A DNA stretch of 64,000 bases from Candidatus Latescibacterota bacterium (GCA_965248435.1 OZ252100.1:2144001-2208000), one strand, 5' to 3'. Shown: positions 3,545 to 36,755, numbered from the stretch's first letter. Notes: generated by a model not told the origin, from the letters alone. Made by a program: numbers and translations.

Positions 3545-4921
3545 CTAGCCGCCTTCCTCCTCGCCTCTGCCGCCCATCGCCTGATCCAGCCTTGCCAGCG
3601 CTGTCTGATAGTCATAGATCGCCTGAACGAGCTCGCTTCGAGCCTCGAAAAGGGTTACCTGCGCCGTTTGACGTTCCAGGAAGGTCCCCGCCCCCAGCTT
3701 GTATCGTTCGTCCTGCAGCTTGAAATCCTCTTCTGCAGCCTGAACTGCGGCCTGGTTCGCTTCCGTGAGGAGCCGAAGGCGCTCGAGGCTGAGAAACGTC
3801 TGCTGAATGTCCAGCGCTGTCTCCCTTCTTGCCTGCTCCAGCATTTCTTCGCTTCGCAGCAGCTGGAGCTTCCGACTTTTCACCTGATACTCCGTGCTCA
3901 ACCGGTCAAAGACCGGCAGGCTGACCCGCATGTTGAAACTGTAGTTGTAGTTCCTGTCGAACAGGTCTCCGAGCCCCCCGAAATCTTCATCCTTTGCCAG
4001 CGTCCAGTTGTATCCAGCGTTCATGCTGACGGTGGGATGACGCAGGCGAAACTGCGTCGCCCGCAGATTGTCGCGGTCCCGCATCATGAAATATTCTTGC
4101 GAAAGCAGGCTCGGATGTCGTTCCATCGCTCGATTCAGGGCCTCTTCGTAGGTCACCTTCGGAGGTTCGACCTCGAACTGCTCATCAGCCAGTACGACGC
4201 GGACGTCGGTTCCCAATCCCAGGCGGAAGCCCAGGTTGGACCGGGCGACCTCAACGTCGTTTTCCCGACTGATCAGATTACTGCGGTCTCGCTGGAGCTG
4301 CGACTTCGCACTGTACACCTGTGCGATATGCGCCGATCCAATCTCATAAAGGGTCTCGCTACGTCGATGTGTCTCCTCCGAGACCTGGATCTGTTCCTGC
4401 TGTACCTCCAGCAGTTTGATCGCCTTCAACAACCCGAAGTAAGCCTCCTTCGTCTGAAAAACTACCTGCTGCCGGCTCCGGCTCAGATTCATCTCCGCAG
4501 CCATCTTACCGTTCTTGCTGGACGAGAGATCTGCAAATTTGCTCAGGTCCAGAATCGGCACGTTGAAGCTGGCCCCCACGTTCTGCGAGCCGCTCGTGCG
4601 GCTGTTGCCCACTGTCGTGATCAGCCGTCCGGTCGTCTCATCGAGCTGCGCCCCTTCCCGCGGCCCGATAAGAGAGCGATTAAAGGTATAGTTCGTGCTC
4701 ACGCTCGGCAGGAAGGCCCCTTTTGCCCTGGCGACCTCTGTCCCGGCCATATCCAGATCATAACCACCCTGGACGACCAGGGAGTTGGTCTTGAGGGCTG
4801 TCTCCAGGCACTCAGCGAGGGTCAGCTTGACTTTTTTGACCTCTGGCCCTTGACCAAAAGAGACAAGCGGCCCGACGAAGAAACCGACGCTGAGCAAGAG
4901 GGTGTAGACGAATCTCGCCAT
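3545..4921 (-). CDS. TolC-family outer membrane efflux protein
   Basis: Signal peptide; LTLAECLETAL, AKGAFLPSVS, RYKLGAGTFLE, YDYQTALARLDQAMG; ATG 4921 follows GAGG. Confidence 0.92.
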   Translation of the reverse strand: MARFVYTLLLSVGFFVGPLVSFGQGPEVKKVKLTLAECLETALKTNSLVVQGGYDLDMAGTEVARAKGAFLPSVSTNYTFNRSLIGPREGAQLDETTGRLITTVGNSRTSGSQNVGASFNVPILDLSKFADLSSSKNGKMAAEMNLSRSRQQVVFQTKEAYFGLLKAIKLLEVQQEQIQVSEETHRRSETLYEIGSAHIAQVYSAKSQLQRDRSNLISRENDVEVARSNLGFRLGLGTDVRVVLADEQFEVEPPKVTYEEALNRAMERHPSLLSQEYFMMRDRDNLRATQFRLRHPTVSMNAGYNWTLAKDEDFGGLGDLFDRNYNYSFNMRVSLPVFDRLSTEYQVKSRKLQLLRSEEMLEQARRETALDIQQTFLSLERLRLLTEANQAAVQAAEEDFKLQDERYKLGAGTFLERQTAQVTLFEARSELVQAIYDYQTALARLDQAMGGRGEEEGG

Positions 4922-4975
4922 AGGTTCCTCACTCGGAAAACGGTTTTGGATTGCGGGATGTCTGTTCAATCCGTG

Positions 4976-7900
4976 TCAATCCCCCCGATCCACGAGGGAA
5001 TAAACGGTAGGAATGATCACAAGCGTAAGTACCGTAGCGCTGATTAATCCAGCTACGACGGCGATGGCCATCGGCGTTCGAATCTCCGCACCTTCTCCGA
5101 GACCCAGGGCCATCGGCAGCAGACCGAGCACCGTTGTAGACGTCGTCATCACGATCGGCCGAAACCTGACAGAGGCCGCTTGTGCGATCGCGTCGAACTT
5201 GGCCATCCCGCCTCGCCGAAGGCGGTTGATGTAGTCGACCATAACGATGGCGTTGTTCACCACGATCCCGGCCAGCATAATCAGCCCCAGGAAGACCACG
5301 ACGCTCAAAGAGATACCCAGGAGATAAAGAACCAGGATAACGCCGATGAGTGCAAGCGGGATCGTGAAAATAATGATCAACGGGTGACTAAACGATTCGA
5401 ACTGAGAGGCCATCACGATGTAGACCAGAAAAATGGCCAGCCCAAGCGCAAACGCAAGGCTGTCCAGAGAGGTCTGCATCTCGCGATTCTGGCCGCCGAT
5501 CAATATATTGACGTCCTGCGGGACGTCCATCCCCTCGAGCGCCCGCTGGATCTTCCCCGTAACGGTCCCCAAATCGAACCCGCTCACATTGGCCGAAACC
5601 TTCACAGCCCGCTGCTGATCGATGCGACGAATCTCGCTGGGCCCTTCTTTAACGTGGATATCCGCGACGGCCGAAAGGGGGATGGGTACCTCCCCATCCG
5701 GATTCACGATCAGCCGCCTCAGGTCAGCCACGCTTGCTCGGTCCGCCTCGTTCACGCGAACCAGCATATCGATCCGTCGCTCCGCCTCACGGAATCGGGT
5801 GGCCACCTCCCCCTGGACCTTTTCTCTCACCAGGGAGGCGACCGAGCGCAGGTTCAACCCGAATTTCGCCAGCAGATCTCGCTGGTAGACGATCTGTACT
5901 TCCGGGCTGCCGCGCTGGAGGCTGGACTTGACGTCGTAGAGCCCTGGAATCCCTGACAATGCGACCTCCGCATCCCTTCCCAGCTGCCCCAGGCTCTGCA
6001 GGTCGTTGCCCCGAATCTCTACTTCGATAGGGGTCTTGGTCGTAAACAGATCCGTCCTCGAAAAATCAATCTTCACCTGAGGCAGATCCCTTAGCGCGCT
6101 ACGAAGCCGATCCATAAGCGCCTGCTCTCTCTGCGCGAGAAGGCTCTCGCCCGTGACTCCCCCCCAGATTTCTGCCGGCAGGGAACCCAGACGCCGCAGG
6201 ACGCGCGAGGCGCTACTCTTTTCTAGACCGTCCTCTTCCAGTGCGACAGTCACCTTCGCGGTATGTTCGCCCTGATTCTCAGATGTAATCGCGAGCCGGT
6301 CCACGCCCACGACGGATGCGACGCGTGCGATACCCTGTTCGGCGTTAACCCTGGACTCCAGTCGCTGAGCCATCTCGTTCGTCGCGCGGAGCGGCGTGCC
6401 GACCGGCATGGCCATCTCCAGGTTGAACTCACCCTGATGCACTTGTGGGATCAACTCGCTGCCGATCCTCGGAAGCAGCAGGAACCAGCAGGCCGCGAAC
6501 AGGGCCAGCGCGGTCAGGAGGACCCGCGCAGGGTTCTGAAGCGCCCATCGGAGGCCGGTCGGATAGCTCCGGCTCAGCGGGTCGAACCCGCGCTCGAAAA
6601 GGAACAGAATCGGCGCCAGGATGGGCAGGATCAACAGCCCCAGTAGGATAAGGCTTGCCATACCGGCCAGAAAGACCAGCAGCAGGGCCAGGACCAGGAC
6701 CTTGCCGGCAGAAGCGACGGCAAGGAAGATCACGAATCGTGCGAACAGATAGAAAGGCGTCAGGACGAAGAGCGCCGCCAGAAGCACAAGGGTGAGCAGT
6801 GTGGGCAAACTCCTGAGCGATCGTGCCCCGAGCCCCCCCTGGAGGGCCCACCTCACGACGCGCCGCATCGATCCCAGCGACCACCTGAGGGCGGGGCCGA
6901 TGTCGCTTCCAAGAGACTCAGGGGCTGTGAACGAAAGGAGATCGTCCCAGATCGTCCTAGCAAACCGGCGCTTGAACAGATCGCGATCTGTCCCCCACGA
7001 GCAGATCGCATCCCAAATCGGACCGGGTCCGCCCCGTTTCCGCAATCGTTGAACGCCGGCGGCCGCTGGAAAGTACGGAACGACTGCCAGGACCACGAAG
7101 ACCATCTTCAACAGGACGATGACCGCGGCCACCAGAATCCAAAGCGCCCGAACGACGAACTCCACAATGACGCATAAAATCAGTAGCAGGATCCACGCCA
7201 GGAACGTGGCGAAATCGCCTCCTCTCTCCCTTTCGGTTCGTACAGATCTTAACTTCTCGAGTGACCAGAGTTGCAACACCTCCGACCGCGTCATCTCGCC
7301 TACACGGCCACTTGACAAGCCTGGTCCAGCACTGCCTCCCATTTGAATTCTGCGGGAGGCCAGCATCGGGATGAAAAAGAGCGCAACGCCCAGCGACGCA
7401 ATCAGAGAAAAGACTACGGTCAGGGCCATGTCGCCGAACACCTGTCCTGCAACCCCCTCCACGAAGACGATCGGGAAGAACACGGCTACAGTCGTCAGGG
7501 TAGACGCAAAAACCGCGCCGCCCACCTCTCCGGTGCCTCGAATCGCGGCCGAAACGATGTCATCCCCCTCTTCCCGGCATCTGAAGATACTTTCCAGCAC
7601 CACGATCGAGTTGTCCACGAGCATCCCGATCCCCAGCGCCAGTCCACCGAGGGACATGATGTTCAGCGAAACGTCGAATATTTTCATCGGGGCGAACGTT
7701 GCCACGACGGAGATGGGGATGGCCAGGCCGACGATGGCGGTGTTGATTGGATTCCGGAGGAAGACGTAGAGCACCAGGATCGCGAGAAGTCCCCCGATCA
7801 CCGCGGTCCGCTTCACCTCATTCACGGACCCTTCGATAAACCTGGATTGGTCAGAAAGGACCTCCATCTCCATGCCGGCCGGCAATGAATACTGAATGAA

Positions 7901-8974: not shown

Positions 8975-8979
8975 GTCTG

Positions 8980-10242: not shown

Positions 10243-10348
10243 GAACCAGCCTCTTTGATCTTTTTTCGTGCTGAATTGTTTCAGGACTCATCGGTCCTCG
10301 AACACAACAAAATAGCAACAATCTTGTAGTGGGTGTTCGACTACAACG

Positions 10349-10376
10349 AAAAACGCCATCCAGAAAAGGATGGCGT
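10349..10376 (-). terminator. Intrinsic terminator within leader A
   Basis: Minus strand ACGCCATCC-ttttct-GGATGGCGT-TTTT; identical hairpin at 36433-36456. Confidence 0.85.
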
Positions 10377-10614
10377 CGAACAAACGTCATATCCACCTTC
10401 CCCAGACACGGTTCGGCTCAGCAAAAGCCGAGCCCCGGTGCCCTGGAGAAGGGGTTGCGCAATCTCAAGCGAGGAAAGTCCCACTGGTACTCCGTAATCG
10501 CGGCAAGTATCTCCTCCAGTGCTAGCCGATATGCCAGCGCAGAAGCATCTGATTCAACTTACATACCTCCATTTAACGGTTCCTTTTTCGTGGTCCAGGG
10601 GTCTCAATTTGATG
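10349..10614 (-). promoter_or_regulatory. Structured 5' leader / candidate attenuator (copy A) of the MFP-RND-TolC operon
   Basis: Collinear conserved blocks shared with 36429-36680; uORF 10522-10557; alternative pairings. Confidence 0.65.
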
Positions 10615-10618
10615 GTCT

Positions 10619-10647
10619 AACATACAATCTATCGGGAGCGAAGTCAA
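10619..10647 (-). promoter_or_regulatory. Sigma70-type promoter of leader A
   Basis: TTGACT-17 bp-TATGTT; same hexamers and spacing as 36685-36713. Confidence 0.8.
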
Positions 10648-10851
10648 TATGAATTTCATCCGCTCGGCTACAATTGGAGATAATAAACCATTTGTGTACT
10701 CGGGTCCTCTTCAACGTCGTGAAATTTGTCGGACAACGTTCCTTGCGAGCCTCGCGATCTAGATTATGTGATGAATATATCTTAAAATTAGGAAGCAGAA
10801 CTATTAGAATTGTTTTACATCGGTCGGTCCATACCGTGGACCCTTGCCAGT

Positions 10852-14049: not shown

Positions 14050-14055
14050 TTACCT

Positions 14056-14102
14056 GTAGAGACGTCCCGGCGGGGCGTCTCACCCCGGTGGGCCGTTTCT
14101 AC
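14056..14102. repeat. GTAG-type REP-like palindrome (compound)
   Basis: GTAGAGACGTCCCGGCGGGGCGTCTC followed by a partial second copy ending TCTAC. Confidence 0.7.
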
Positions 14103-14105
14103 ACA

Positions 14106-17276: not shown

Positions 17277-17296
17277 CGCCCTTGATTATTTGATAT

Positions 17297-18351
17297 CCCG
17301 AGTTCAATAAGGAAGTGCAACACTTAGGGTAGCAACTGTCCTATCCTAAGTGTATGGGAAACAATTACAAGCATCTTACGATAGACGAACGCGAGCAGAT
17401 TGCGCTTTGTCGAGCCACTGGTGCAAGCCTTAGAGATATTGCCAAGGCCCTTGACCGGAGCGCCAGCACGATTTCAAGAGAGTTGAAACGTAATCCGTCC
17501 CCGATAGCTGAGAGTTACTCGGGCCTCCAGGCTCACAGAAGGGCTGAGAAACGTAAGCGGGAGGCCGGCAAGCGGAAACGGCTGAAGAATCCGGTTATCC
17601 GGCGATATGTCGAGACCAAACTCAAGCAAGGATGGTCTCCCGAGTTGATCGCTGGGAGGCTTCCCGAGGAGCGTCCGAGCGCGGGTATCAGCCACGAAGC
17701 CATCTACCAGTATATCTACGATCCAAAGGTGCACAAGCAGCGGGATCTGGTTGCTTGCTTATCCCGAGCTCACAAAAAACGAAAGCCGCGGTGGCATACC
17801 CGAAAACACCGGGAAAGCCACATTCCAGGCCGTATTTCGATCGATCGACGTCCCCGTTACATCGAAAAACGGAAACAACCTGGCCACTGGGAATCCGACA
17901 CCATCATCTCTCGTGAGAGCAAACAGGCCGTTGGCGCTTGTCTTGAGCGATCGTCGAGATACCTACACCTGGCTAAGCTGGCAAAGAACGGACCCTCGGA
18001 GGTCGCCGAAGCGATTAATCGACGCCTTGGGCGACATCCTCCCCACATGAGGAAGAGCATCACATATGACAACGGATCCGAAAACGGCCAACATCAACGG
18101 GTCAACGAGGTGCTTGGCACCAAATCCTATTTCTGCAAACCGTTCCACAGCTGGGAGCGAGGCGCTGTGGAAAACGCTATCGGTCTGGTCCGCAGATACC
18201 TCCCCAAGAAGACAGACTTCTCAAAGGTCAGCAAACACGAGTTAAAGAAAATTCAGAACCGGATCAACAACCGACCAAGAAAATGTCTTAACTTCAAAAC
18301 ACCAGCTGAAGTCTTCAAGTCCAAGTGTTGCACTTAGTCATTGAATCCAGC
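17297..18351 (+). mobile_element. IS30-family insertion sequence
   Basis: Imperfect terminal inverted repeats sharing TTCAAT-N4-AAGTGCAACACTT; TAT on both flanks (3-bp target duplication); lower GC. Confidence 0.88.
17354..18337 (+). CDS. IS30-family transposase
   Basis: YKHLTIDER..IA..LDRSASTISRELKRN HTH; WSPELIAG; GHWESDT, ITYDNGSE, WERGAVEN, INNRPRKCL. Confidence 0.95.
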   Translation: MGNNYKHLTIDEREQIALCRATGASLRDIAKALDRSASTISRELKRNPSPIAESYSGLQAHRRAEKRKREAGKRKRLKNPVIRRYVETKLKQGWSPELIAGRLPEERPSAGISHEAIYQYIYDPKVHKQRDLVACLSRAHKKRKPRWHTRKHRESHIPGRISIDRRPRYIEKRKQPGHWESDTIISRESKQAVGACLERSSRYLHLAKLAKNGPSEVAEAINRRLGRHPPHMRKSITYDNGSENGQHQRVNEVLGTKSYFCKPFHSWERGAVENAIGLVRRYLPKKTDFSKVSKHELKKIQNRINNRPRKCLNFKTPAEVFKSKCCT

Positions 18352-18370
18352 TATTGGATATTGCTTCAAG

Positions 18371-18438
18371 GCCCTCACCACCGGCCCCTCTCCCATATAT
18401 GGGAGAGGGATGCCGAGCGAAGCGAGGCAGGGTGAGGG
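18371..18438. repeat. REP-like palindrome of CCCTCACC..CCCTCTCCC..GGGAGAGGG..GGTGAGGG type
   Basis: Nested inverted repeats read directly. Confidence 0.6.
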
Positions 18439-18447
18439 CCCCTCCTT

Positions 18448-21621: not shown

Positions 21622-21642
21622 GGCAACTGATAAGGTTCCCAA

Positions 21643-24600
21643 TTAGTCAGCCGGCTCTGGACTCCGGTAGGCAATCGGCCTGGTGCGCGACAGTGCACCT
21701 GACACGATCCGGCGCAGGGCCAAACGCAGATCGTCCAGGTAGGTATAGAAGAGCGGTACGACGAACAGCGTCAGAAATGTCGCGCAGAGCAGTCCGCCGA
21801 TCATCGTCCGGCCCATGGGTGCGTAGGGAATGCCCATCATCGTGCTCGTTCCAAGCGCCATCGGGAGCAGCCCGAACACCGTCGTGAAGGTCGTCATCAG
21901 GATCGGCCGGAACCGGTTGGCGCCCGCTTCCAGAATCGCCTCCGTCCGAGTCCTGCCTTCTGTCCGCAGCCGGTTGACCATGTCGACAAGCACGATCGCG
22001 TTGTTCACGACAACACCGATCAACACGATGATCCCCACCTGGGCCATCTGCCCCATCACCGTACCGGTGAGGTAGAGCATCCAGTAGACACCCAGGAACG
22101 CGAACGGGATGCAGAAGAGAACGGAAAAGGGCAGGAGAAACGACTCGAACAGGACGCCCATTAACAGAAATACGCATGTGATGGCCATCATCACGGCGAA
22201 TCCCATCGTCTCCTCCGATTCCTTGAACTTGGTAAACCGCTCGCCCCGGTCCCACGAATAGCCGTGCGGCAGTTCGAAACCTTCCATCGCGCGACCGATC
22301 TCTTCATACAGGCCTTTCAGGTCGTCTTCCGTCGTAAAAATCTTCAACACCAGCCGGATCTTCCCGTTTGCTCGATAGATTTTCCACGCGCCTTTAGCGA
22401 CTTCGAACGAGGCGAAAGCCGACAGGGGAACCAGCTCACCCGATTTCGAGGGGAAGGTGAAGTTTTTCAGCTGTTCCAAAGTCTGGCGATCCAACTTCCT
22501 CAGATAGAGTCGCACGCCGACTTCCCGCTCGTCGGAACGGTATCGAGGCAGCTTTACGCCACCGAGCTGGTAGGTAATGCTCTTTGCCACGACCTGTGAC
22601 GCAATCCCGTGCTTGCGGGCGAGCCCTCGGTCGATGTGTACCTGCACCTCGTTCTCCCCTCGCTCCATATCGCTCAGAATCCCGACGACCGAAGGGAGGC
22701 TCTCCAGGCGAAGCTCGATCTCATCGAGCAGTTCGGCCCCCATCTCCAGATCATCTCCCCACAGCATGAGGTTTATGTAGGGGTTGCTTCCACCTCCCGA
22801 CTCGACGACGACCTGGTTTCCCACAAACCGTGGCATGTTCTTTCTCAAATCTTCGATCACGGCCTTTCGATCCATCCGGCCGTCGATCGTGGCGCCGGCA
22901 CGGTTTCTCACCTCTCTGTACACCTGATACCACCACGCGCGGTTCTCATCCTCTTCTAAGAAGACGCGAAAGTAGAGACGCGACCCGCCGGTGACCCTGT
23001 AGCGAAGCTGCACGGTCCGTATGCTGTAGACCTCTCTCTTGCTGTCCAGGAAGGCCTCGATTTCAGCCCCGAGATCGCTGATATCCTTTCTGGTGAAAAA
23101 CGGCGGCGTTGCGACCCGGATTCTGATGTCGTTGAGGTTTCCGCGCATCGAATCCGATCGTTTGATCTGCCCCATCGGATAGACCATCGTCGCAGACAGG
23201 AGCAGCACGATCAGAACGGCATCCTTCCGATGGGCAAGCGACCAGGCCAGCCCCCTTCCGTAACCCCTTCGGGCCCAGCCGATTGAACTTTGCTCTCCTT
23301 TCGTCGTGGTACCTCCGAATCGCTTCGCCGCGAGGGGAATGAAGAACATCGCCACGAAGAGAGACGCCAGCAGAGCCACGATGATCGGCATGCCGATCCT
23401 GGAAAGAAAGAAGGAGAGCTCAACTTCGCTGCTCATCAGCATGAGCGGGAGAAACACGACCACGGTCGTCAGCGTCGCAATCGCGATCGCAAGACCAACC
23501 TCGCTCGCGCCGCGGATCGACGCTTCGTGCGGGTCTCCCCCTTTGACGCGCATTCGGTGGATATTTTCTACGACAACGATCGCATTATCGACCACCATCC
23601 CGATCGCTACCATAAGTCCCATCATCGTCAAAAGATTCAGGGTCCAACCCACGAAGTAGAGGGTGGCAACTGCGGTCATCACACAGAACGGGATGGCCAG
23701 TGTGATCAGCGCCGTCATGCGCACACCGCGAAGGAAAAAGAGAAGCACCAGACCCGCGAACAGCCCGCCCACAAACCGGTGTCTCCGAGATTTTCGATGG
23801 ATTCGCTGATGAGCTGACCCTGGTCGAAGTAGGTCCTGAATTTGACGTCGGTCCGGGCCTCGATCCGCCTCAACTCCGTCTCTACTTTCCGAGAAACTAG
23901 ATGTTCGTGCCCGGCTCTCGATGGACCCCAAGCCCGACGCCCGACCGGCCGTCCATCCTGAGGTTCCAGTAAGTGAAAGGCACGTCATAAAACACATTAG
24001 CGACTTCCTCTACCCTTACCGTGCCCTTCCGGTTTCGAATCGGGATACGCTCGAACTCGTCCAGGCTGCCGTACCGGGCCACAGATCTCACGTAGAACTT
24101 CTTGCCCCCTTCGTGCACGGCACCGCCGCCCATCTCGAAGTTGTCCTCCCGCAGGGTTTGCACGAGATCGTAAGCACCCACACCTCGTGTCTGAAGCCGC
24201 TCCTGGTCGAGCTCGACCACGACTTCCTTCTCAGGGGCCCCCCAGATCCGAACACCAGCGACCCCATCGATCCGCTCCAAGGAACGCTGGACGTTCGTCT
24301 GAACGAATGCGTGAGGGTGTTCGACCTCATCTGGAATCGAAACCCCGATCCAGAGGATGTTTTCGTCCGTGTCTTTGTTGTACTTCCAGATTCCGACGTT
24401 GTCGCGGGTTTCCCGAGGCAGCACAAGTTTCAAGCGCTCCACCGCGTCCACAACCTGGTTATAGGCAATGGTCATGTCCACGTCGTTCCGAAATTCAAGG
24501 CGCGCGTTCGCACCCCAGATTCCACAGCTCGACCACAGCAGCCGCAACCCTTTTACCGTCTGCAAGTGCTCGACCATAGGCTGCGAGATCTGCTCGTCAT

Positions 24601-24811
24601 TCTCTCTCGGGGAGCTGTTCTCCTGCGAACCCGCCCACACCCAGAGCTGCTTCCGCTCTAGCCCGGAGGGGAACGCCTCCATCTGAATTCGAGTCAGCGC
24701 CACGATGCCCACCACAAGCAGCGCCGCGAGACACATCGTCACCGTCACGGGGCGGCTCACTGAAATGCGCGGCAGAAGAGAGCCTCTATGTTCTTTGACT
24801 TGCTTATTCAT
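21643..24811 (-). pseudogene. RND permease, array paralog 4, frameshifted (or assembly indels)
   Basis: Split into ORFs 23897-24811 and 21643-23997; homology continues in a third frame between lesions near 23897 and 23768. Confidence 0.8.
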
Positions 24812-24902
24812 TTGTGAGTGATGCAGATAGAATTCATTGCGTTATAGATAGAGTTATTTTGGTCCCGAGATACGAGATACCAGATACGAGATACGTTCAT
24901 TT

Positions 24903-27900
24903 TCAATCTGCCGGCTCCGGACTTCTTTGTGAAATCGCCCGACCCCAAGTGAACGCGCCTGACACGATCCGCTTCATAGCGACTCGCAGGTCGTCCAGGT
25001 AGGTGTAGAATAGAGGAACAACGAACAACGTCAGGAACGTCGCGCAGAGCAGGCCTCCCATCATCGCCCTGCCCATCGAGGAGTAGGGCACGCCCATCAG
25101 CGTGTTTGAGGCGAGCGACACCGGCACCAGCCCGAACACGGTCGTGAAGGTCGTCATCAGGATCGGACGAAACCGGTTGTTCCCTGCCACCAGGATCGCC
25201 TCCGTTCGGTCCTTGCCCTCGGTCCTTAGCCTGTTGACCACATCTACGAGCACGATCGCGTTGTTCACCACCACGCCGATCAGCACGATGATCCCCACCT
25301 GCGCCATCTGGTCCATCACCGTATCGGTCAGGTAGAGCGTCCAGTAGACGCCCATGAAGGCGAACGGGATGCAAAAGAGGACTGAAAACGGGAGAAGGAA
25401 CGACTCGAACAGCACGCCCATCAACAGGTAGACGCAGGTGATCGCAAGGATCACCGCGAAGGTCATCGTCTGCTCGGTCTCCTTGAAATTCGAATACCGT
25501 TCCCCCTTGTTCCAGGAGTAACCCGTCGGCATCCTGAAGCCGACCATCGCCCTGTCCACCTCCTCATAGAGACCTTTCAAATCCTCTTTGGTCGTTTGGA
25601 TTTCAACTTGCAGTTGGATCTTTCCGTCATACCGCCAGACGCGCATGTCACCCTTCTGCGCCCGGAACGAGGCGAACGCGGACAGGGGGATCTTCTCTCC
25701 CGATTTCGAACGGAAGGTGAAGTTCTTGAGCTGAAACAGAGTCTGTCGATCCAGTCTGTTGAGGTAGAGCCGAAGATCGGTCTCCCGCTCGTCAGAGCGA
25801 TACCGGGGCAGGTCCACGCCCCCAACCTGATAGGCGATGCTCCGTCCTACGGCGTCGGGTTGAATCCCATACTTGCTCATTCGTTCCCGATTCAGGAGCA
25901 CGAGGAGCTCGTTCTCGGATCGTTCGGTGTTGACCTGGACGCCGGTCACCGAAGGGATGCTCTTGACTCGAAACGCCACTTCCTCGGCAAGTCGTTGCAG
26001 CGTCTCAACATCGTTGCCCCTCAAGTTCACGTGGACGTACGGGGTGACTGGGAGCCTCGATTCCACGACGAAATGGTGACCCACGAACGCTGGCAGCGTT
26101 TCATTCAAATCCTCGATCACCGCCTCCCGATCCATCCGACGTTCTACCGGATGACCCAAGACGTTCCTGAGGCCCTTGTAGGCCTGGTACCACCACGCCC
26201 GATTATCCTCCTCTTCCAGGAAGATCCTGAAAAAAAGGCGGCTGCCCCCGGTAACTCGATACGAAAACCTCACGTTCCGAATGCCGTAGGCTTCCCGTTT
26301 GGTGTCCAGGAACGCCTCCATTTCAGCACCGATGTCGCTCAGCTCCTCCCCGTCCAGGAACCTGGGCGGGTAGCCTCTAATACGCACACTGTTCACCTCT
26401 CCCCGCAACGAATCCGACTTTTTTACCTTCTCCATCGGGTAGAGCATCGTGGCAAACAGGGCTACGGCGATCAGAACGGCATCACGTCTGTGGGTCATCG
26501 CCCAGGCAAGCGCACGATGATATCCCGTCCGGACCCATCGGATCGACTTCGGATCCGGCTTCACCTCCGACCCGCCGAACCGTTCGGCCGCCAGAGGGAT
26601 AAAGATCAGGGCGACGAACAGGGACCCAAGCAGGGCCGCGATAAAGGAGACTCCGATTTTGGTTAGGAAGAACGAGAGGTCCACATCTCCGCTCATCACC
26701 ATCAGGGGCAGAAAGACGACCACCGTCGTCAGCGTGGCCGTCGTGATCGCCAGCCCCACCTCGCCCGCCCCCCTAACCGACGCCTCGCGAGCGCCTGTGT
26801 CTTTAGACCGGATCCGGTAGATGTTCTCGACGATCACGATCGCGTTGTCCACGACCATACCCACGGCGATCATCAGCCCCATCATCGTCAGAAGGTTCAG
26901 GGACCAGTCGATAAAGTAGAGGACGGTCACGGCGATCATCACGCAGACCGGAATGGCCAGCGTGATCAGCGCCGTCATTCGCGCTGCCCGGAGAAAAAAG
27001 AGTAGGACCAGCGCCGCGAACAGGCCGCCCCAGAGCGCCGTATTCCTCAGATTTTCCATCGATTCCCGGATCTGCTTTCCCTGATTGTAGAGGATGTCCA
27101 GATGGACCCCTGTCTCGGCCTTGATCTCCTTCAGCTCCACCTCCACCCGGTCACACAATTCCGCGATATTGGCCCCGGGCGTGCGAAACACACCCAAAGA
27201 CACAAAGGGTCGGCCGTCGATCCGATACGTCAAGTACCGTCGCGGCAAATCATAAAACACATCCGCGACCTCCTTGATTCGCACGATGCCGTTCTGCGTG
27301 TGGATGGGAATCTCCTCGATCTCCCCCAGGCTTGTGTAGCGGGCTACGGACCTCACGTAGAATCTCTTCCCGCCTTCGAAAACTGTGCCCCCGGACATGT
27401 CGAAGTTGTCGTCCCTGAGTGTCCTTGCGAGCTCATAGGCGCTCACGCCCCGTGCCCGGAGCCGCTCCTGGTCGACGGAGATGGCGACGAGCATCGGGGA
27501 TGCACCCCAGATCGTTATCCGGCCCACGCCGTCGAGCCGCTCCAGCCTCGGCTGAATGCGGGACTGGATGAAGTAATACGGGTCTTCGATCTGCGGAGGC
27601 AGACCTACGCCGACCCAGAGGATCTCCTGGTCTGTATCCGGGTTGTATTTGTAGATGCGGAACCTGGCCTGCGCCTCCTCCGGAATCGCGACCTTCAGCC
27701 TTTCCAACCGGTCAGTGACTCGATTGTAGACCTCCGTCATATCCGCGTCTTTTTTGAACATCAGGTAGACCGAGAGGTGTGACTTTCGACTGCCCACCGT
27801 CAACGAATGGAGGTCCTTCAGGGTGCGAAAGTGCTCCATAACGGGTCGGCCGATCTGTTCATCCCTTTCCCGCGCCGAAGAGTTCGGGAGGGTATCGATC

Positions 27901-28061
27901 CGCATAGAGATCCCGGGCCAATCGCGCCCCGAGGGAAAGGCCTGTATCCGGATCCGGGCGTAGGAAACCAGACCGACGGCCAGTATAGCCACGAGGCACA
28001 TCGTCACCGTCACGGGGCGCGTCACGGAGATGCGAGGCAACAATGAGGACTTCTCATCCAT
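24903..28061 (-). CDS. RND permease, array paralog 5
   Basis: Same conserved motifs; ATG 28061 (MDEKSSLLPR) overlaps the upstream gene end. Confidence 0.95.
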   Translation of the reverse strand: MDEKSSLLPRISVTRPVTVTMCLVAILAVGLVSYARIRIQAFPSGRDWPGISMRIDTLPNSSARERDEQIGRPVMEHFRTLKDLHSLTVGSRKSHLSVYLMFKKDADMTEVYNRVTDRLERLKVAIPEEAQARFRIYKYNPDTDQEILWVGVGLPPQIEDPYYFIQSRIQPRLERLDGVGRITIWGASPMLVAISVDQERLRARGVSAYELARTLRDDNFDMSGGTVFEGGKRFYVRSVARYTSLGEIEEIPIHTQNGIVRIKEVADVFYDLPRRYLTYRIDGRPFVSLGVFRTPGANIAELCDRVEVELKEIKAETGVHLDILYNQGKQIRESMENLRNTALWGGLFAALVLLFFLRAARMTALITLAIPVCVMIAVTVLYFIDWSLNLLTMMGLMIAVGMVVDNAIVIVENIYRIRSKDTGAREASVRGAGEVGLAITTATLTTVVVFLPLMVMSGDVDLSFFLTKIGVSFIAALLGSLFVALIFIPLAAERFGGSEVKPDPKSIRWVRTGYHRALAWAMTHRRDAVLIAVALFATMLYPMEKVKKSDSLRGEVNSVRIRGYPPRFLDGEELSDIGAEMEAFLDTKREAYGIRNVRFSYRVTGGSRLFFRIFLEEEDNRAWWYQAYKGLRNVLGHPVERRMDREAVIEDLNETLPAFVGHHFVVESRLPVTPYVHVNLRGNDVETLQRLAEEVAFRVKSIPSVTGVQVNTERSENELLVLLNRERMSKYGIQPDAVGRSIAYQVGGVDLPRYRSDERETDLRLYLNRLDRQTLFQLKNFTFRSKSGEKIPLSAFASFRAQKGDMRVWRYDGKIQLQVEIQTTKEDLKGLYEEVDRAMVGFRMPTGYSWNKGERYSNFKETEQTMTFAVILAITCVYLLMGVLFESFLLPFSVLFCIPFAFMGVYWTLYLTDTVMDQMAQVGIIVLIGVVVNNAIVLVDVVNRLRTEGKDRTEAILVAGNNRFRPILMTTFTTVFGLVPVSLASNTLMGVPYSSMGRAMMGGLLCATFLTLFVVPLFYTYLDDLRVAMKRIVSGAFTWGRAISQRSPEPAD

Positions 28062-28893
28062 CTTTTGTCTCGTCCAGACATTCGCGAACGAATTCCAGAT
28101 TCCGATAGCTGTTCGAATCCAGCTCGCTGAAATTCGGGTCGGTGATCTCGAACGCATCGGGGCTGAGCGCCAGGTGCGTCTCGATCACGACGAACCCGTC
28201 GTAGCCATCCCCCCGTAGCGCCCGGAATTGACCCGGCCAGTCCACCACCCCCTGCTCAGCCAGAGCCCACTGGCCGGCCGCGGGATCGTAATTCTTCACG
28301 TGCACGTGGGCGACCAGCTCCTTGAGGGTCTCGTACTCGTCCGGAAAAGGGATTTTCGATCCAGCGCGAGCGGAGTTTCCCGGGTCCCAGCAGAGCCCGA
28401 TCCGATCGGCGCCGACCTGGCGAATGATCTCCGCCGCCTCGAGACCCGTTGCGCCCCAGCAGGCCGCCTCGTTCTCCAGGATGGGGCGACAGCCCTCGCG
28501 CCTGATGATATCAACCATCTCACCTACGCGGTCGATCACCTCGGCGGGAACTTGCCCGGTGTCATCCCTATCGAAGGCGAAGCAGGAGACCAAGTCCGTC
28601 CCCCATCGCTTTGCCCACGCACAGGCGCGCTGCAGCCCCTCGGCGAATCCGGCTTCCACCGACGGGTCGTCCACTGGACGCTTGAAGAAGCCGGGTGAAA
28701 CCGCGGAAATCGCCAGCCCCGCGTCGCGCACCCGCCTGTAGAATGTCTCCAACTCATCGTCCGCCACGGCAGGGAACCGGCCCCCCGCCAGGGACCGCAC
28801 CTCGACGTGGGTCACATCCCACTCCGACGCCAGCGCGATCGCCCGTTCTGGACGCTTTCGGTCGATCTCATCGGTGAAAATCGAAATCTGCAT
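28054..28893 (-). CDS. Sugar phosphate isomerase/epimerase family TIM-barrel protein
   Basis: ISIFTDEI, ILENE, LCWDPGN, HVHVKN, GYDGFVVIETH metal-site pattern. Confidence 0.88.
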   Translation of the reverse strand: MQISIFTDEIDRKRPERAIALASEWDVTHVEVRSLAGGRFPAVADDELETFYRRVRDAGLAISAVSPGFFKRPVDDPSVEAGFAEGLQRACAWAKRWGTDLVSCFAFDRDDTGQVPAEVIDRVGEMVDIIRREGCRPILENEAACWGATGLEAAEIIRQVGADRIGLCWDPGNSARAGSKIPFPDEYETLKELVAHVHVKNYDPAAGQWALAEQGVVDWPGQFRALRGDGYDGFVVIETHLALSPDAFEITDPNFSELDSNSYRNLEFVRECLDETKDG

Positions 28894-28907
28894 ACATCGA
28901 TCTCCTT

Positions 28908-28937
28908 GTAGAGACGCCCCGGTAGGGCGTCTCCTAC
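28908..28937 (+). repeat. GTAG-type REP-like palindrome
   Basis: GTAGAGACGCCCCGGTAGGGCGTCTCCTAC. Confidence 0.8.
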
Positions 28938-32123: not shown

Positions 32124-32125
32124 CC

Positions 32126-32151
32126 GTAGAGACGCCCCGGTGGGGCGTCTC
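32126..32151 (+). repeat. GTAG-type REP-like palindrome
   Basis: GTAGAGACGCCCCGGTGGGGCGTCTC. Confidence 0.8.
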
Positions 32152-32155
32152 CTGA

Positions 32156-35100
32156 TTAATCCGCCGGTTCTGGACCCCCGAGCGAAACCGTTCTGGTTCG
32201 TAAAAAGGCCGTGGACACGATCCTGCGAAGAGCCAACCGCAGATCATCCAAATACGTATAGAACAGCGGCACGACGAACAGCGTCAACAGCGTCGCGCAT
32301 AGCAGTCCCCCCATCATCGCCCGACCCATCGACGAATACGGCACCCCCATCAGCGTCCCCGAAGCGGCCGACAGCGGTACCAAGCCGAATATCGTCGTGA
32401 ACGTCGTCATCAGGATCGGCCGAAAACGATTCGCGGCAGCCTCCATAATCGCCTCCATCCGACCCTTCCCCTCCGCCCTCACCCGGTTCACCATATCCAC
32501 GAGAACGATCGCGTTGTTCACCACCACCCCGATCAGCACGATGATCCCTACCTGCGCCATCTGGTCCATCACCGTACCGGTCAGGTAGAGCGTCCAGTAT
32601 ACCCCCAGAAAGGCGAACGGGATGCAGAACAGGACCGAAAAAGGAATGATCAGCGACTCGAACAGCACGCCCATCAGGAGGAACACGAACGTGATGGCCA
32701 ACACCACGGCGAACTGCATCGTCTCCTCCGATTCCTTGAACCTCTCGAACCGCTCTCCCTTGGTCCATTTGTATCCCGGCGGCATCTCGAACCCGGTCAT
32801 CGCCCGATCGATCTCTCCGTAGAGCGCATCCAGGTCCTCCTGATTTGTGAACAACTGGCATCCTAGGAGGATCTTTCCTTCACTCCTGAATATGGTCCTC
32901 AACCCCCCGGTGATTCGAAACGAGGCGAAGGCAGAGAGCGGGATTTCCTCTCCGGACCCGGACCGAAACTTGAGGCCCTTGAGCTGTTGGATCGACTGGC
33001 GATCCAACTTGCTCAGGTGAAGACGTATGACCTTCTCTTCGTTCTCGGAGACGTAGCCGGCAAGCTCCACGCCCGCCAGCTGATAATGGAGGCTTCTGGC
33101 CACCCGGCTCGTTGAGATCTCATACTTCCGGGCTGCCTCTCGATCAATCTCGACGCGAACCTCGTCAGATCCGCTGTGTCCCTGCCCGGAGATCCCCGTG
33201 ACCGAGGGGATTGTCGCCAATCTTCGCTCCACCTCGGTGAGGAGCTTGGCCAGGACCTCACGATCATCCCCCGATAACTCGACAAAGAGGTGCGGAATCC
33301 CCACGTTGTCCCCATCGAGGTACATCTGGTGCCCCACAAATTTGGGCACGTGCTTTCGTATGTCTTCAATGACGGTCTTGCGATCCATTCGGTCGTCAAT
33401 CGGGGTTCCGATCTTTTTCCTGAAATCCCGGTAGGCCTGGAACCACCAGGCGACACTCCCCTCATCCTCCAGGATGATCCAAAACCGCAATTTCCCCCTC
33501 GATCCGGGCCAGTAGGAAAACCGGACATTTCGAATACCGTAGGCAGCCCGCCTGCTGTCCAGGAAGGCCTCGACCTCCCGCGCGACCTCACTCAACTCCT
33601 CCCACGGAAGCCACCTCGGTGGACTCAGATTCATGTGGATGCTGTTGATCGACCCCCGCAGGGAATCCGACCGTTTGACCTTTTCCATCGGGTAAAACAT
33701 CGTCGCGAACAGGGCGAGTGTGATCAAAACGGCATCTCTCCGGTGACGCAACGCCCAGGAAAGCCCTCCGAGATAGATCCCTCGCAGCCTCTCGATGCTC
33801 TTTGGATCTCCGTGTACTCGGGCCTCGGAAAACCGCTTTGCCGCCAGGGGGATGAGGAAAAGGGCCACGAAGAGCGAACCGATCAGCGCGACGATCACAG
33901 GCACCCCCACCCTGGAAAGAAAGAATGAGAGATCCACGTCGCCGCTCATCAACATCAGCGGAAGGAACACGACCACTGTCGTGAGCGTGGCCGTCGTGAT
34001 CGCAAGACCGACCTCGCTCGCGCCAGTTATGGAGGCATCCTGAGGATTCACGCCTTTCACGCGCATTCGGTAGATATTCTCCACGACGACGATCGCGTTG
34101 TCCACCACCATCCCGATCGCGACCATCAGACCCATCATCGTCAGCAGATTGAGAGACCAGTCCATGAAATAGAGCACGGCGACTGAAATCGTCACGCAGA
34201 GGGGAATAGCCAGCGTGATCAACGCGGTCATCCGAAACGTGCGAAGGAAGAAGAACAGGACCATGGCCGCGAAAAGCGCCCCCCAAAGTCCGGTGTTCTG
34301 AAGGTTCTGCATCGATTCTCGGATCAGTCTTCCCTGGCTGAAAAAGACTTCGAAATCGAACCCGATTTCCGTTTCGATCCTTTCCAGCTCGCGCTCGACG
34401 TTATCACACAATTCCACGATGTTTTGCCCAGAATCCTTGTAGACTCCGATCGCCATCGCCGGACGCCCGTCGAGAGTGCTGAACCAGTGCCGAATAGGCA
34501 CGTTCGGCGTTACGCTGGCGACCTCGCTCAGGAGCACGTTGCCCTGGCGCGTGGAGATTGGCACGTCCTCGATATCTTCCAGGCTTTCAAAGCGCGCCAG
34601 GGAGCGGACGTAGAATTTCTTCTCCCCTTCACGAACCGTGCCGCCCCCCATGACAAAGTTGTCGCCCTGGAGCGTCCTCACGAGTTCATACGGATTCACC
34701 CCGCGCGCTCGAAGTCGATCTTGATCCAGCTCGATCATCACCACCGTTTGAGGCGTTCCCCATATCCCGACCCCGGCCACACCGGGAATCCGCTCCAGCC
34801 TTGGCTGCACAAGCCGCTCCAACTCGTGCCGTGGGTCCTCGAACGCCCTCGGAAGGGCCACACCCGCCCAGAGCACCACCCTGTCCGACTCCGGATTGTG
34901 TTTGTGGACCCTGACTGTTTCTCTATACTCCTCCGGCAGCTCGCGCTTCAACTGCTCCACCCGATCAACGAGTCGGTTGTAGACCTCGGACATGTCGAGG
35001 CCTCTGCGGAAGTAGAGTCTGGAAGAGGTATTGGTTTCCGTGCTCTTGATATCGAACTTCCTCAACCCTTTCAGCGTACCGAAGTGTTCCCACATCGGGC

Positions 35101-35332
35101 GAGCAACCTGCTGGTCTTTTTCGTGCGGCGATGTGTCTGACGGGGTGTAGGTACTGACGTAGATAAAGGACGACTCCAGCCCGGTCGCGAAGGCCTGGAT
35201 CCGGATCCGGGAATAGGCAACCACCCCGACCGCGAGAATGGCCACCAGGCACATCGTGACCGTCACCGGACGGGTCACCGAAATGCGCGGAAGCAGGGAA
35301 CCCGCAGATGTTTTCGTTTCACGATTCATCAC
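32156..35332 (-). CDS. RND permease, array paralog 7
   Basis: Same conserved motifs; start overlaps the oxidoreductase stop. Confidence 0.95.
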   Translation of the reverse strand: MMNRETKTSAGSLLPRISVTRPVTVTMCLVAILAVGVVAYSRIRIQAFATGLESSFIYVSTYTPSDTSPHEKDQQVARPMWEHFGTLKGLRKFDIKSTETNTSSRLYFRRGLDMSEVYNRLVDRVEQLKRELPEEYRETVRVHKHNPESDRVVLWAGVALPRAFEDPRHELERLVQPRLERIPGVAGVGIWGTPQTVVMIELDQDRLRARGVNPYELVRTLQGDNFVMGGGTVREGEKKFYVRSLARFESLEDIEDVPISTRQGNVLLSEVASVTPNVPIRHWFSTLDGRPAMAIGVYKDSGQNIVELCDNVERELERIETEIGFDFEVFFSQGRLIRESMQNLQNTGLWGALFAAMVLFFFLRTFRMTALITLAIPLCVTISVAVLYFMDWSLNLLTMMGLMVAIGMVVDNAIVVVENIYRMRVKGVNPQDASITGASEVGLAITTATLTTVVVFLPLMLMSGDVDLSFFLSRVGVPVIVALIGSLFVALFLIPLAAKRFSEARVHGDPKSIERLRGIYLGGLSWALRHRRDAVLITLALFATMFYPMEKVKRSDSLRGSINSIHMNLSPPRWLPWEELSEVAREVEAFLDSRRAAYGIRNVRFSYWPGSRGKLRFWIILEDEGSVAWWFQAYRDFRKKIGTPIDDRMDRKTVIEDIRKHVPKFVGHQMYLDGDNVGIPHLFVELSGDDREVLAKLLTEVERRLATIPSVTGISGQGHSGSDEVRVEIDREAARKYEISTSRVARSLHYQLAGVELAGYVSENEEKVIRLHLSKLDRQSIQQLKGLKFRSGSGEEIPLSAFASFRITGGLRTIFRSEGKILLGCQLFTNQEDLDALYGEIDRAMTGFEMPPGYKWTKGERFERFKESEETMQFAVVLAITFVFLLMGVLFESLIIPFSVLFCIPFAFLGVYWTLYLTGTVMDQMAQVGIIVLIGVVVNNAIVLVDMVNRVRAEGKGRMEAIMEAAANRFRPILMTTFTTIFGLVPLSAASGTLMGVPYSSMGRAMMGGLLCATLLTLFVVPLFYTYLDDLRLALRRIVSTAFLRTRTVSLGGPEPAD

Positions 35333-36360
35333 GGATAAGTCCCCAAATCGACATCGCGGATCTCTTCATCTGCCGCCTTCTGAATGACCAGCGCGATGCG
35401 GGAAGCCTGGATGACCGATTCGGTACAAAGCTCATCCTCACCTGTCTCGCCCCGAATATCCCGCACGAAAGACTTCAGGTGTCCCCCGGGGTTGCCCTCC
35501 GGCAGCACGCGCCTGCTCACCGCCTTGTCGTGATCCAGCGCAAGCACGATCTCATTCAGATTCTGGGAAACCTCCAGGACGCCCCTCCGTCCCCAGAAGG
35601 TCATGCGCCAGTAGAAGGGTAGTCCGTATCCTCCGCCAAAAGGCGAGAAGTAAGACACATCTCCCATCACGCCGCACCCGTTCTCCATCGTCAGCATCAT
35701 CTGTGCGCCGTCCTTGAAGTGGGGATGCTCGCGTGCGAACGCGTTCCAGCACCGCGCGACGTTCACGGTCGAGAACTTCAGACCCGTCATCCACGGAATA
35801 CAGTCGAGCGCGTGGACGCCGACGTCGGCGATCGTCCCGCCGTGTTTCCCGGGCTCGAAGTACCACGCCGGACGAGAGCCAAGATTCAAGGGGTGCTGCC
35901 CGCCGAACGCGATCGCGTGAATCGGCCCGATATCTCCGTCTCGAATCACGTTTCTCGCCCCGATCACGTTGGGCTGATCTCGAAGGGTCAGCATACAGCC
36001 GACCTTCAGGTCGTGCGCACGGGCGAGCCGTTCGATCTCATCCAGCTCGTTCAGATCCGTACAGATCGGCTTGTCCGAAATCACGTGCTTCCCTTTCGAG
36101 AGCGCCTGAATCGCGAGGCTCCCTCGCCGGCCGAACCAATCTCCGATCGCGACCACGTCGCACGCCACATCCGCCAGCATTTTCTCGAACTCGGAATGCG
36201 TGATCTGGACCCCTTTACTCTCGGCTTCCCCCCGAGCCGCTTCATCTTCTTCGCAGGCGGCCGACAGCTCGATCCCCTCCACCTCCTGCTCCAGGACCCG
36301 TTTGTAAAGTGTCCGGATGTGACCGTGACGAAAACCCATAAATGCAAACTTGAGCGGCAT
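35329..36360 (-). CDS. Gfo/Idh/MocA family oxidoreductase
   Basis: KFAFMGFRHGH Rossmann start, GKHVISDKP, GGTIADVGVHALD; likely start ATG 36360, downstream of the leader terminator. Confidence 0.9.
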   Translation of the reverse strand: MPLKFAFMGFRHGHIRTLYKRVLEQEVEGIELSAACEEDEAARGEAESKGVQITHSEFEKMLADVACDVVAIGDWFGRRGSLAIQALSKGKHVISDKPICTDLNELDEIERLARAHDLKVGCMLTLRDQPNVIGARNVIRDGDIGPIHAIAFGGQHPLNLGSRPAWYFEPGKHGGTIADVGVHALDCIPWMTGLKFSTVNVARCWNAFAREHPHFKDGAQMMLTMENGCGVMGDVSYFSPFGGGYGLPFYWRMTFWGRRGVLEVSQNLNEIVLALDHDKAVSRRVLPEGNPGGHLKSFVRDIRGETGEDELCTESVIQASRIALVIQKAADEEIRDVDLGTYP

Positions 36361-36428
36361 ATGCTTTAACCTACCTGCAAGAATAGCCACAGCATCCGCG
36401 TCGTGCCGTGGCTTGGGGGGTATAAAAC

Positions 36429-36457
36429 AAAAACGCCATCCAGAAAAGGATGGCGTT
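36429..36457 (-). terminator. Intrinsic terminator within leader B
   Basis: Minus strand AACGCCATCC-ttttct-GGATGGCGTT-TTTGTTTT. Confidence 0.85.
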
Positions 36458-36680
36458 AAACGCAATCGCTCCCCCAGACACGAGTCGGTTCAGTAAGAAC
36501 CGGGACCTGGCGTCCTGGAGAAGCGGGTGTATTGACTTGACCGAAGAATGTCGCATCGGAGTTGACAAACGCGGGTCGTGTGTTCTCCAGAACTACGGCT
36601 GATGACAGCGCATAAACTTCATAAGTGCTTGAACGCCTCCGTTTTTGCGTAGCTAGAGTGCTAGGGGTCTCATTTCGATG
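36429..36680 (-). promoter_or_regulatory. Structured 5' leader / candidate attenuator (copy B) of the RND array
   Basis: Homologous to 10349-10614; uORF 36593-36622 MKFMRCHQP*. Confidence 0.65.
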
Positions 36681-36684
36681 AATT

Positions 36685-36713
36685 AACATACAATTTGCGA
36701 CCCGTTAAGTCAA
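36685..36713 (-). promoter_or_regulatory. Sigma70-type promoter of leader B
   Basis: TTGACT-17 bp-TATGTT. Confidence 0.8.
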
Positions 36714-36755
36714 CCCGTATCTCCCCCGATAGCGCTTCGGGCGATCGAACCAGCG

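Follow-up and report, generated by a model that had tools for sequence, protein, structure and literature searches.

We describe a locus in which seven paralogous genes for permeases of the resistance-nodulation-division (RND) family are arranged head to tail, directly upstream of a single operon that encodes a periplasmic adaptor of the membrane fusion protein (MFP) family, a divergent RND permease of 1332 amino acids (aa) and a TolC-like outer membrane factor (OMF). The locus is located in a 64,000-nt stretch of the genome of a Candidatus Latescibacterota bacterium (GCA_965248435.1 OZ252100.1:2144001-2208000), referred to below as the window, whose positions serve as coordinates throughout; the source genome, G000, comprises 5.67 Mb in 2 contigs. 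Matches to Pfam- and TIGRFAM-type profiles and the gene coordinates confirm both units as they had been given in a preliminary description of this DNA. Judging from ancestry, co-occurrence and orphan status, as read from the sequences, the array (genes A1 to A7) very probably arose within this genus through tandem multiplication of one partner, the short one, of an ancient system of two RNDs, the long partner being the 1332-aa permease of the adjoining core operon. The whole explanation that we favour, in which this expansion is combined with a constant chassis working with the short partners, has in our estimation a probability of about 0.5.

Ancestry of the long and short permeases

The ancestral arrangement was sought in a survey of one genome per species, which gave 15 loci; 13 of these were analysed, following removal of L007 (a same-genus array) and L021 (21% identity), and 12 were scanned with Pfam profiles (all but L015). 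In 10 of the 12 scanned loci (L008, L010-L012, L014, L016-L020), an MFP gene is followed by a gene for an RND of 1141-1398 aa and then by a homolog of the short permeases, whereas in L009 and L013 the RND ahead of the short gene is split into two open reading frames (ORFs). The short homologs of these operons are 37-47% identical to A1, and the L008 operon additionally encodes an outer membrane efflux protein (OEP). The record titles of the surveyed loci refer to Latescibacterota, KSB1, Opitutaceae or Opitutales and unclassified bacteria. In the other families of the class, the long gene is directly followed by the short one in at least 18 of the genomes for which coordinates of both were listed, and in five more in which this order was confirmed by tblastn; tandem pairs of short genes are found in G069 and G070. 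In several of the ancestral operons (L012, L024), the start of the short gene overlaps or abuts the stop of the long one, which suggests that the two are synthesized in a coupled manner, as subunits of one complex would be.

Two phylogenetic trees were constructed, one with FastTree (94 rows) and a quick one with IQ-TREE (62 rows), both approximate, with SH-like support values and with outgroups that call for caution on account of long branches. Of the 120 database homologs, 49 entered the first tree, following removal of near-duplicates and short sequences, and 14 the second; G000_o2489k, a 564-aa extract, was left out. Both trees unite the long RNDs and the first RND gene of the MFP-RND-RND operons in a single clade (support 96-97). 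The short family is likewise a clade (support 100), in which the operon-paired short genes are basal and the orphans of Latescibacterota are nested, with L008_short as the sister to all the latter, and the Opitutaceae subtrees agree between long and short. A1-A7 form one clade (support 100) with their orthologs from a second genome of the genus, G001, and with two dispersed copies of G000, D1 and D2; a third dispersed copy, D3, falls just outside. Operon synteny and trees agree with the earlier proposal that one member of a two-RND pair had expanded beside a constant member. The expected position of the array as a sister-type group to the second RND of such pairs was recovered; strict monophyly was not, D1 and D2 being nested among the array genes.

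That proposal had been framed on the model of the MdtBC pair, and here descent from a two-RND operon stands and orthology to MdtB and MdtC does not, by both tree and equivalog scores. MdtB and MdtC of Escherichia coli K-12 are sisters (support 100) that belong to neither clade, long or short, and the NCBIfam MdtB and MdtC equivalog models score 305-432 bits, missing their cut-offs of 1584 and 1774 widely. Judged by these comparisons, the long/short pair is an independent invention, not orthologous to MdtB/MdtC.

The phyletic distribution of the two genes was assessed in 140 genomes of the phylum with completeness of at least 85%. At the E-value cut-offs used, 96 genomes have both genes and 33 have neither, four have only the long gene and seven only the short one. 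In all four long-only cases, the gene lies at a contig end of a fragmented assembly. Absence of the long gene was rejected in each of the five short-only genomes that were re-examined (G087, G088, G134, G135 and G137; G089 and G126 were left out): all carry MFP-long-short, and the apparent lack stemmed from the E-value cut-off and from splitting of the match to the long gene across its divergent insert. Among 41 close relatives from the order, copy number is asymmetric, in line with the idea of a constant and an expanded partner: 39 have exactly one long homolog (64-87% identical) versus 1-10 matches to the short query, a count that, at the cut-off, also admits a few other RNDs of ~30% identity. 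The two remaining relatives, G008 (94% complete) and G036 (82% complete), have neither gene. In G002, the core operon is MFP-long-OEP, without a short gene. Within the order, short genes stand beside the core operon in this genus only, and because unlinked orphan copies are the rule across the whole order, the adjacency of array and operon is special to the genus.

The source genome itself encodes three family members outside the array, D1, D2 and D3 (55-60% identical), none with a gene for an MFP or OMF within ~7 kb. Their surroundings contain, in turn, ABC-2 transporter genes and a nucleotidyltransferase gene; genes for a penicillin amidase and a protein of the nonribosomal peptide synthetase type; and genes for dihydrodipicolinate synthase (DHDPS), an amidohydrolase and a peptidase. 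The orphan short copies of five complete relatives are similarly isolated, with an MFP gene within 5 kb in none of 12 cases and within 10 kb in one (at 7.5 kb). Hence, D1-D3 are orphans in the sense of having no MFP or OMF gene in cis, and the array members have them only in the neighbouring operon.

These observations can be arranged into the following scenario. The ancestral operon would have encoded an MFP, a long RND of ~1300 aa, a short RND of ~1050 aa and, often, an OMF. In this order, the short gene would have quit the operon and multiplied as orphans, the single long gene remaining with the genes for TolC and MFP; the orphans of this genus would have grown in tandem to at least seven copies, directly upstream of the core operon.

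G000 encodes seven further RND permeases at ~25-34% identity, six of which are near an MFP match, the exception being o404k. An RND gene beside an MFP gene at ~21 kb (G000:C1:20222-24930, L027) is the sister to the long clade, and an orphan RND gene without an MFP gene at ~404 kb (G000:C1:404597-407860, L028), with genes for a 3-keto-disaccharide hydrolase and queC as neighbours, is the sister to the whole short family; the two constitute a possible second split RND pair.

The array and its counterpart in a second species

The features of the locus are collected in Table 1. All genes of the array and of the core operon are encoded on the minus strand, with the insertion sequence (IS) between A5 and A6 on the plus strand. 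The seven array proteins are 58-72% identical to each other and ~30% identical to the long RND. The N-terminal motif LLPRISV(T/S)RPVTVTMCL and the C-terminal PEPAD, both ascribed to all seven in the preliminary description, were indeed found in each of them; the PEPAD tail is limited to the array clade and is missing from D1-D3. The six intact genes match PF00873 with 560-592 bits across profile positions 3-1020 (cut-off 28), and the two pieces of A4 with 421 and 125 bits. Genome-wide searches with TIGR01730 and PF02321 bore out the absence of adaptor and outer membrane genes from among the array genes, the regional matches being confined to the 3'-flanking operon. The count of seven RND genes itself holds with qualifications: six are intact and A4 is a recent pseudogene, the series is interrupted by an IS30-family element and by a gene for a xylose-isomerase-like TIM-barrel enzyme, and D1-D3 lie elsewhere.

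Table 1. Features of the RND array, the core operon and their surroundings, in order of position in the window.
Feature	Position	Strand	Evidence or remark
TolC-like OMF, 474 aa, last gene of the core operon	3545..4969	-	PF02321 (OEP), 204 bits, two repeats
Long RND permease, 1332 aa	4976..8974	-	PF00873 (ACR_tran), 776 bits
MFP periplasmic adaptor, 420 aa	8980..10242	-	TIGR01730, 221.6 bits (cut-off 94.9)
Leader copy 1, upstream of the MFP gene	10321..10662	-	sigma70-like promoter (10647-10619), ~270-nt leader, terminator hairpin (10377-10352)
A7, short RND paralog, 1065 aa	10852..14049	-	PF00873, 586 bits
A6, short RND paralog, 1056 aa	14106..17276	-	PF00873, 566 bits
IS30-family insertion sequence between A5 and A6 (transposase ORF 17354-18337)	17303..18345	+	NF033563, 279.5 bits (cut-off 80)
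A5, short RND paralog, 1064 aa	18448..21642	-	PF00873, 574 bits
A4, short RND paralog with two frameshifts, recent pseudogene	21643..24811	-	tblastn pieces in three frames
A3, short RND paralog, ~1052 aa from ATG at 28061	24903..28061	-	P0008 (1052 aa) matches 100%
Xylose-isomerase-like TIM-barrel enzyme, between A2 and A3	28054..28893	-	PF01261, 99 bits
A2, short RND paralog, 1061 aa	28938..32123	-	PF00873, 560 bits
A1, short RND paralog, 1058 aa	32156..35332	-	PF00873, 572 bits
GFO/IDH/MocA-family oxidoreductase, first gene of the array unit	35329..36465	-	PF01408, PF22725
Leader copy 2, upstream of the GFO-A1 unit	36416..36730	-	nhmmer E 4.7e-93; same promoter boxes, identical terminator hairpin
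Major facilitator superfamily (MFS) transporter gene	36756-38012	-	immediately upstream of leader copy 2

The array was compared with contigs of four public sequencing runs, all from one sample that is possibly the same as the source of the genome. Over positions 17000-36900, these contigs align to the window ungapped and vary at one position only, 34112, where one contig of run X4 has a C>G change; the junctions A5/A4/A3, A3/TIM barrel/A2 and A2/A1/GFO are spanned at even depth with 0 differences. Both frameshifts of A4, near 23897-23900 and 23763-23769, are seen ungapped in contigs of the four runs. Given that the contigs bridge the paralog junctions and reproduce both frameshifts, the array is real and not a misassembly, as had been expected when a mixture of strains was considered an improbable source of it, and A4 is a true recent pseudogene. 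The IS30-family element has inverted repeats of 23 nt that are 87% complementary; it is present in G000 in 31 full-length copies, with a contig depth ~30x that of its surroundings, and the identity of 22 of the copies indicates that the element has recently been active. The copy within the array probably disconnects A6-A7 from the promoter upstream.

In G001, the syntenic locus consists of an ortholog of A1, the TIM-barrel gene, four further full copies and one fragment, and the genes for MFP, long RND and TolC. The identities to G000 are 76% for the A1 ortholog (G001_a1), 88% for the TIM-barrel protein, 84% for the MFP, 86% for the long RND and 79% for TolC, and, within the array, 82% for A7/G001_a6, 84% for A5/G001_a3 and 85% for A2/G001_a5. 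The trees identify one-to-one orthologs in G001 for A1, A2, A4, A5 and A7 and pair database proteins with A3 and A6, the nearest relative of A6 being P0007. The one-to-one orthologs and the database partners of A3 and A6 imply that the expansion to at least seven copies predates the split of the two species; the duplications are old, considering that the paralogs are only 58-72% identical. The ortholog of A2 occupies a different position, the gene order having been rearranged, and A6 is represented in G001 by an N-terminal fragment only. An ortholog of the GFO gene was not found ahead of the G001 array.

Relative to the G001 orthologs, the ratio of nonsynonymous to synonymous substitutions (dN/dS) of the array genes is 0.11-0.18 at dS of 0.6-0.9, which shows the array, by this measure, to be under purifying selection. 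Individually, the ratio is 0.17 for A1, 0.14 for A5, 0.18 for A7 and 0.10 for the TIM-barrel gene; in the core operon, it is 0.14 (long RND), 0.17 (MFP) and 0.21 (TolC); for the pseudogene A4 and its ortholog G001_a2 it is still 0.13-0.16. The last ~375 nt of the G001 genes a2, a5 and a6 are 86-93% identical at the DNA level, versus 74-80% in most other pairs, and the C-terminal tails of their products are nearly identical, a pattern which suggests gene conversion at the 3' ends within the G001 array (L005/L006).

Aside from the IS, the array genes are tightly packed, with intergenic distances ranging from overlap to 91 bp; A7 is separated from the MFP gene by 609 bp and the long gene from that for TolC by 6 bp. 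The TolC-like protein scores 159 bits against TIGR01844, under the cut-off. The longest ORF of A3 extends to 28157, into the TIM-barrel gene, and the ATG at 28061 is the probable true start; the true start of the GFO gene probably lies downstream of 36465. The end of the GFO gene and the beginning of A1 share 4 nt, and the TIM-barrel gene overlaps the probable start of A3 by 8 nt, such that the two enzymes are translationally coupled to A1 and A3, respectively. Both proteins give weak matches to models of sugar and glycoside 3-dehydrogenases, and we speculate that their presence within the array unit may link the products of glycoside or sugar oxidation or breakdown with export.

A leader element common to both units

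In G000, the core operon and the array unit are preceded by the same element, composed of promoter boxes (TTGACT-17-TATGTT), a ~270-nt leader and a GC-rich hairpin, identical in both copies, with a T run behind it. An nhmmer search found two copies in G000 and one in G001 (L005:19507-19825), the latter upstream of the MFP gene. Owing to this common promoter-leader-terminator element, the two units of G000 would be switched on together. The consensus fold of the three sequences combines a closing helix of long range with a long inner one, with compensatory changes at 5 of 62 pairs, and a putative tiny ORF follows a GGAGG and ends at a conserved TAG. The age and the structure of the leader are weakly supported by these comparisons. 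We read it as a transcription-attenuation element, of either riboswitch-like or leader-peptide type. No Rfam family matched anywhere in the window at gathering thresholds; the sole match at E<=5 in the two leader regions, a sub-threshold one of anti-hemB to the terminator, was judged to be due to chance. The succession of promoter, structured leader of ~270 nt, intrinsic terminator and tiny ORF ahead of transporter genes resembles efflux operons controlled by attenuation or riboswitches, from which the present leader differs in belonging to no Rfam family and in its occurrence as three copies, all in one genus. It is accordingly a candidate for a new attenuator or riboswitch-like RNA controlling efflux genes.

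Features of the two permease types

The long RND owes its size to an insert of ~240 residues with hydrophobic runs between transmembrane segments TM6 and TM7 (residues 558-799) and to another, periplasmic one of 42 aa (318-359). The hydrophobic runs suggest about four extra membrane helices, probably 16 in all. Both inserts keep their length across the long clade (in Latescibacterota, Opitutaceae and the unclassified relative L010), L014 with its shorter ones being the exception. In the structure database, MdtB (9lyq) is the nearest solved relative of both the long (E 5e-111) and the short (E 2e-78) permeases.

For the comparison of the proton relay and of the subdomains, residue numbers and approximate domain borders follow AcrB. 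The residues D407, N408, N940, R971 and T978 are found in both long and short permeases, with D2 having M at the T978 position. Replacement of D408 and of K940 by N is common to all ten short copies and to the four aligned long RNDs (G000, L008, L010 and L017), and N at both positions is also found in two other RNDs of G000; L008_short keeps D-D/K. As far as alignment can tell, the D-N/N relay of the long and short proteins would be a variant that is not obviously dead. The classical D408/K940 pair is absent from seven of the eight aligned non-short RNDs of G000, the long one included, and these pumps may relay protons by a chemistry other than that of AcrB.

For the ten short paralogs of G000, pairwise identities average 0.76-0.83 over the main transmembrane blocks (0.62-0.67 for TM7 taken alone), falling to 0.56-0.59 for the docking and 0.40-0.54 for the porter subdomains; conservation of the hairpin region likewise exceeds that of the porter subdomains. 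Divergent porters over conserved membrane blocks would fit diversified substrate pockets on a conserved engine. Comparison of the hairpin and switch-loop regions yielded family-specific conserved motifs, none of them decisive.

Relation to known RND systems

In its ancestral form, retained by the relatives, the system resembles MdtABC of E. coli and MuxABC-OpmB of Pseudomonas in combining an MFP with two RND paralogs in one operon, and RND_permease_2 is the best NCBIfam subfamily of the long and short proteins as it is of the Mdt permeases. It differs from MdtABC in several respects. The operon in the window is MFP-long-TolC, with the short genes in a separate upstream unit; the long partner is ~280 aa bigger and has predicted extra membrane helices; the partners are unlinked across the whole order, with one of them present in 1-10 copies and, here, seven in tandem; and the proton relay is D-N/N versus D-D/K. 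The sections of the literature cited here describe MdtBC as active in the form of a B2C heterotrimer, MdtB alone as forming homotrimers, and the need for two permeases as still unclear (PMC12802153), and the MdtB/MdtC duplication as ancient within Proteobacteria (PMC7015380).

The stand-alone short genes outside the genus and D1-D3 are reminiscent of AcrD, an orphan RND gene without an adaptor or channel gene alongside, whose product uses components encoded elsewhere (AcrAD-TolC; PMC8277102, in the part cited). However, AcrD is a close paralog of AcrB and homotrimeric, whereas the orphans described here trace back to the second gene of an operon with two RNDs and occur together with a single conserved long RND, and AcrD has no counterpart of the seven-gene tandem array. 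In the full-text literature searched, which did not extend to subscription literature, we found no description of a one-long/many-short RND architecture, of tandem arrays of one RND partner or of a long permease of this type. To our knowledge, mixed RND trimers are known essentially from one system, MdtBC and its orthologs.

Mixed trimers or independent pumps

How might a set of short permeases without adaptors of their own function? We infer that they use the neighbouring MFP and TolC, most likely in mixed trimers in the manner of MdtB2C. The MFP, the long RND and TolC would then constitute a constant chassis, to which each short paralog would bring a different periplasmic porter domain, and the short paralogs would presumably differ in their substrates; the substrate specificity of RND pumps resides in the periplasmic domains, according to the part of PMC8277102 cited. 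By analogy with MdtBC, we give the assembly of long and short proteins into mixed trimers an even chance or slightly less. A more far-reaching possibility, which we put forward tentatively, is that of a combinatorial pump, in which the long permease, the MFP and TolC accept, order-wide, any of up to ten short proteins, whose genes are dispersed over metabolic operons, with the substrate range set by expression; the locus in the window would be its extreme form, with seven copies beside the chassis under the same, undescribed attenuator-type leader.

Several observations weigh against the explanation by a constant chassis and mixed trimers. The trimers are modelled on MdtBC, a non-orthologous pair. 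A division of labour in the proton relay has been reported between MdtB and MdtC; a corresponding split was sought here by alignment of long and short permeases, and their relay residues proved to be identical. The contrast between porter and membrane blocks is a weak point in favour, given that greater divergence of periplasmic than of membrane regions is usual among RND paralogs. Co-occurrence among relatives is non-independent evidence, and joint loss is trivial where the genes adjoin; joint absences of unlinked genes amount to only two genomes, 94% and 82% complete. Elsewhere in the order, wherever both genes are on one contig, the short copies are at least 144 kb from the long gene, and the varied metabolic neighbourhoods of unlinked short copies fit independent pumps equally well. 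Other components are at hand in G000, which has at least eight MFP genes above the family cut-off and eight OMF genes: the other MFPs and the seven other OMFs could serve the short pumps. The nhmmer search found no leader ahead of the G001 array, so that the shared leader claimed for both units holds for G000 alone, and no leader was detected outside the genus by BLAST or by covariance model R1, which was built from three sequences only. Finally, the A4 pseudogene and the splitting of the array by the IS30 element mean that not all seven copies need be in use.

The main alternative, which we regard as unlikely, is that the short proteins are independent homotrimers that borrow an MFP and a channel from the neighbouring operon or another one, as AcrD does, with the long RND being a separate homotrimeric pump; the ancestral long-short operon would then have encoded two pumps with one common adaptor. 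Apart from the precedent of AcrAD-TolC, the distance between short genes and long operon in the order's other genomes and the abundance of MFP and OMF genes in G000, this scenario is favoured by the full-length RND architecture and the identical, complete-looking relay of both long and short proteins, and by the homotrimers of MdtB alone, as mentioned above. It does not require, though, the near-perfect co-occurrence of long and short genes, the two unlinked joint absences included, nor does it predict that the long gene is strictly single while the number of short ones varies, and the overlapping or abutting genes of L012 and L024, with their suggestion of coupled synthesis, speak for a closer association of the two products.

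An improbable alternative is that the short orphans act without adaptor and channel, transporting substrates no further than to the periplasm, out of the cytoplasm or the inner membrane, or have a non-efflux role tied to the adjoining metabolic genes. The isolation of D1-D3 and of the orphans of relatives from MFP genes is in keeping with it, as are metabolic neighbours such as the genes for DHDPS, amidohydrolase, penicillin amidase, GFO and TIM-barrel enzymes, but the family descends from operons of the tripartite type with an MFP, its docking subdomains and hairpin region are better conserved than the porter subdomains, and the array adjoins MFP and TolC genes in two species. The notion that the array is clutter, resulting from neutral amplification in the course of decay or from assembly of mixed strains, draws on the frameshifts of A4, the IS30 insertion, the loss of most of the A6 ortholog, the altered gene order and the signs of gene conversion in G001, and is largely refuted by the five one-to-one ortholog pairs with low dN/dS in two species, the age of the duplications and the junction-spanning contigs.

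Under the explanation that we favour, that of an expanded short partner on a constant chassis, this lineage is a natural experiment, in which an independently evolved long/short pair, with a constant and a diverging multi-copy partner, was unlinked and then expanded sevenfold; further leads are offered by the long permease, with its predicted additional helices, and by the as yet unclassified RNA of the leader. Should the short proteins instead be homotrimers that borrow adaptor and channel, no larger group of AcrD-like orphans attached to one core would be known. If, however, short partners are exchanged on one chassis, trimeric pumps would gain substrate range combinatorially rather than by duplication of whole pumps, which would bear on the evolution of efflux repertoires and on the cooperation of protomers within the RND trimer.

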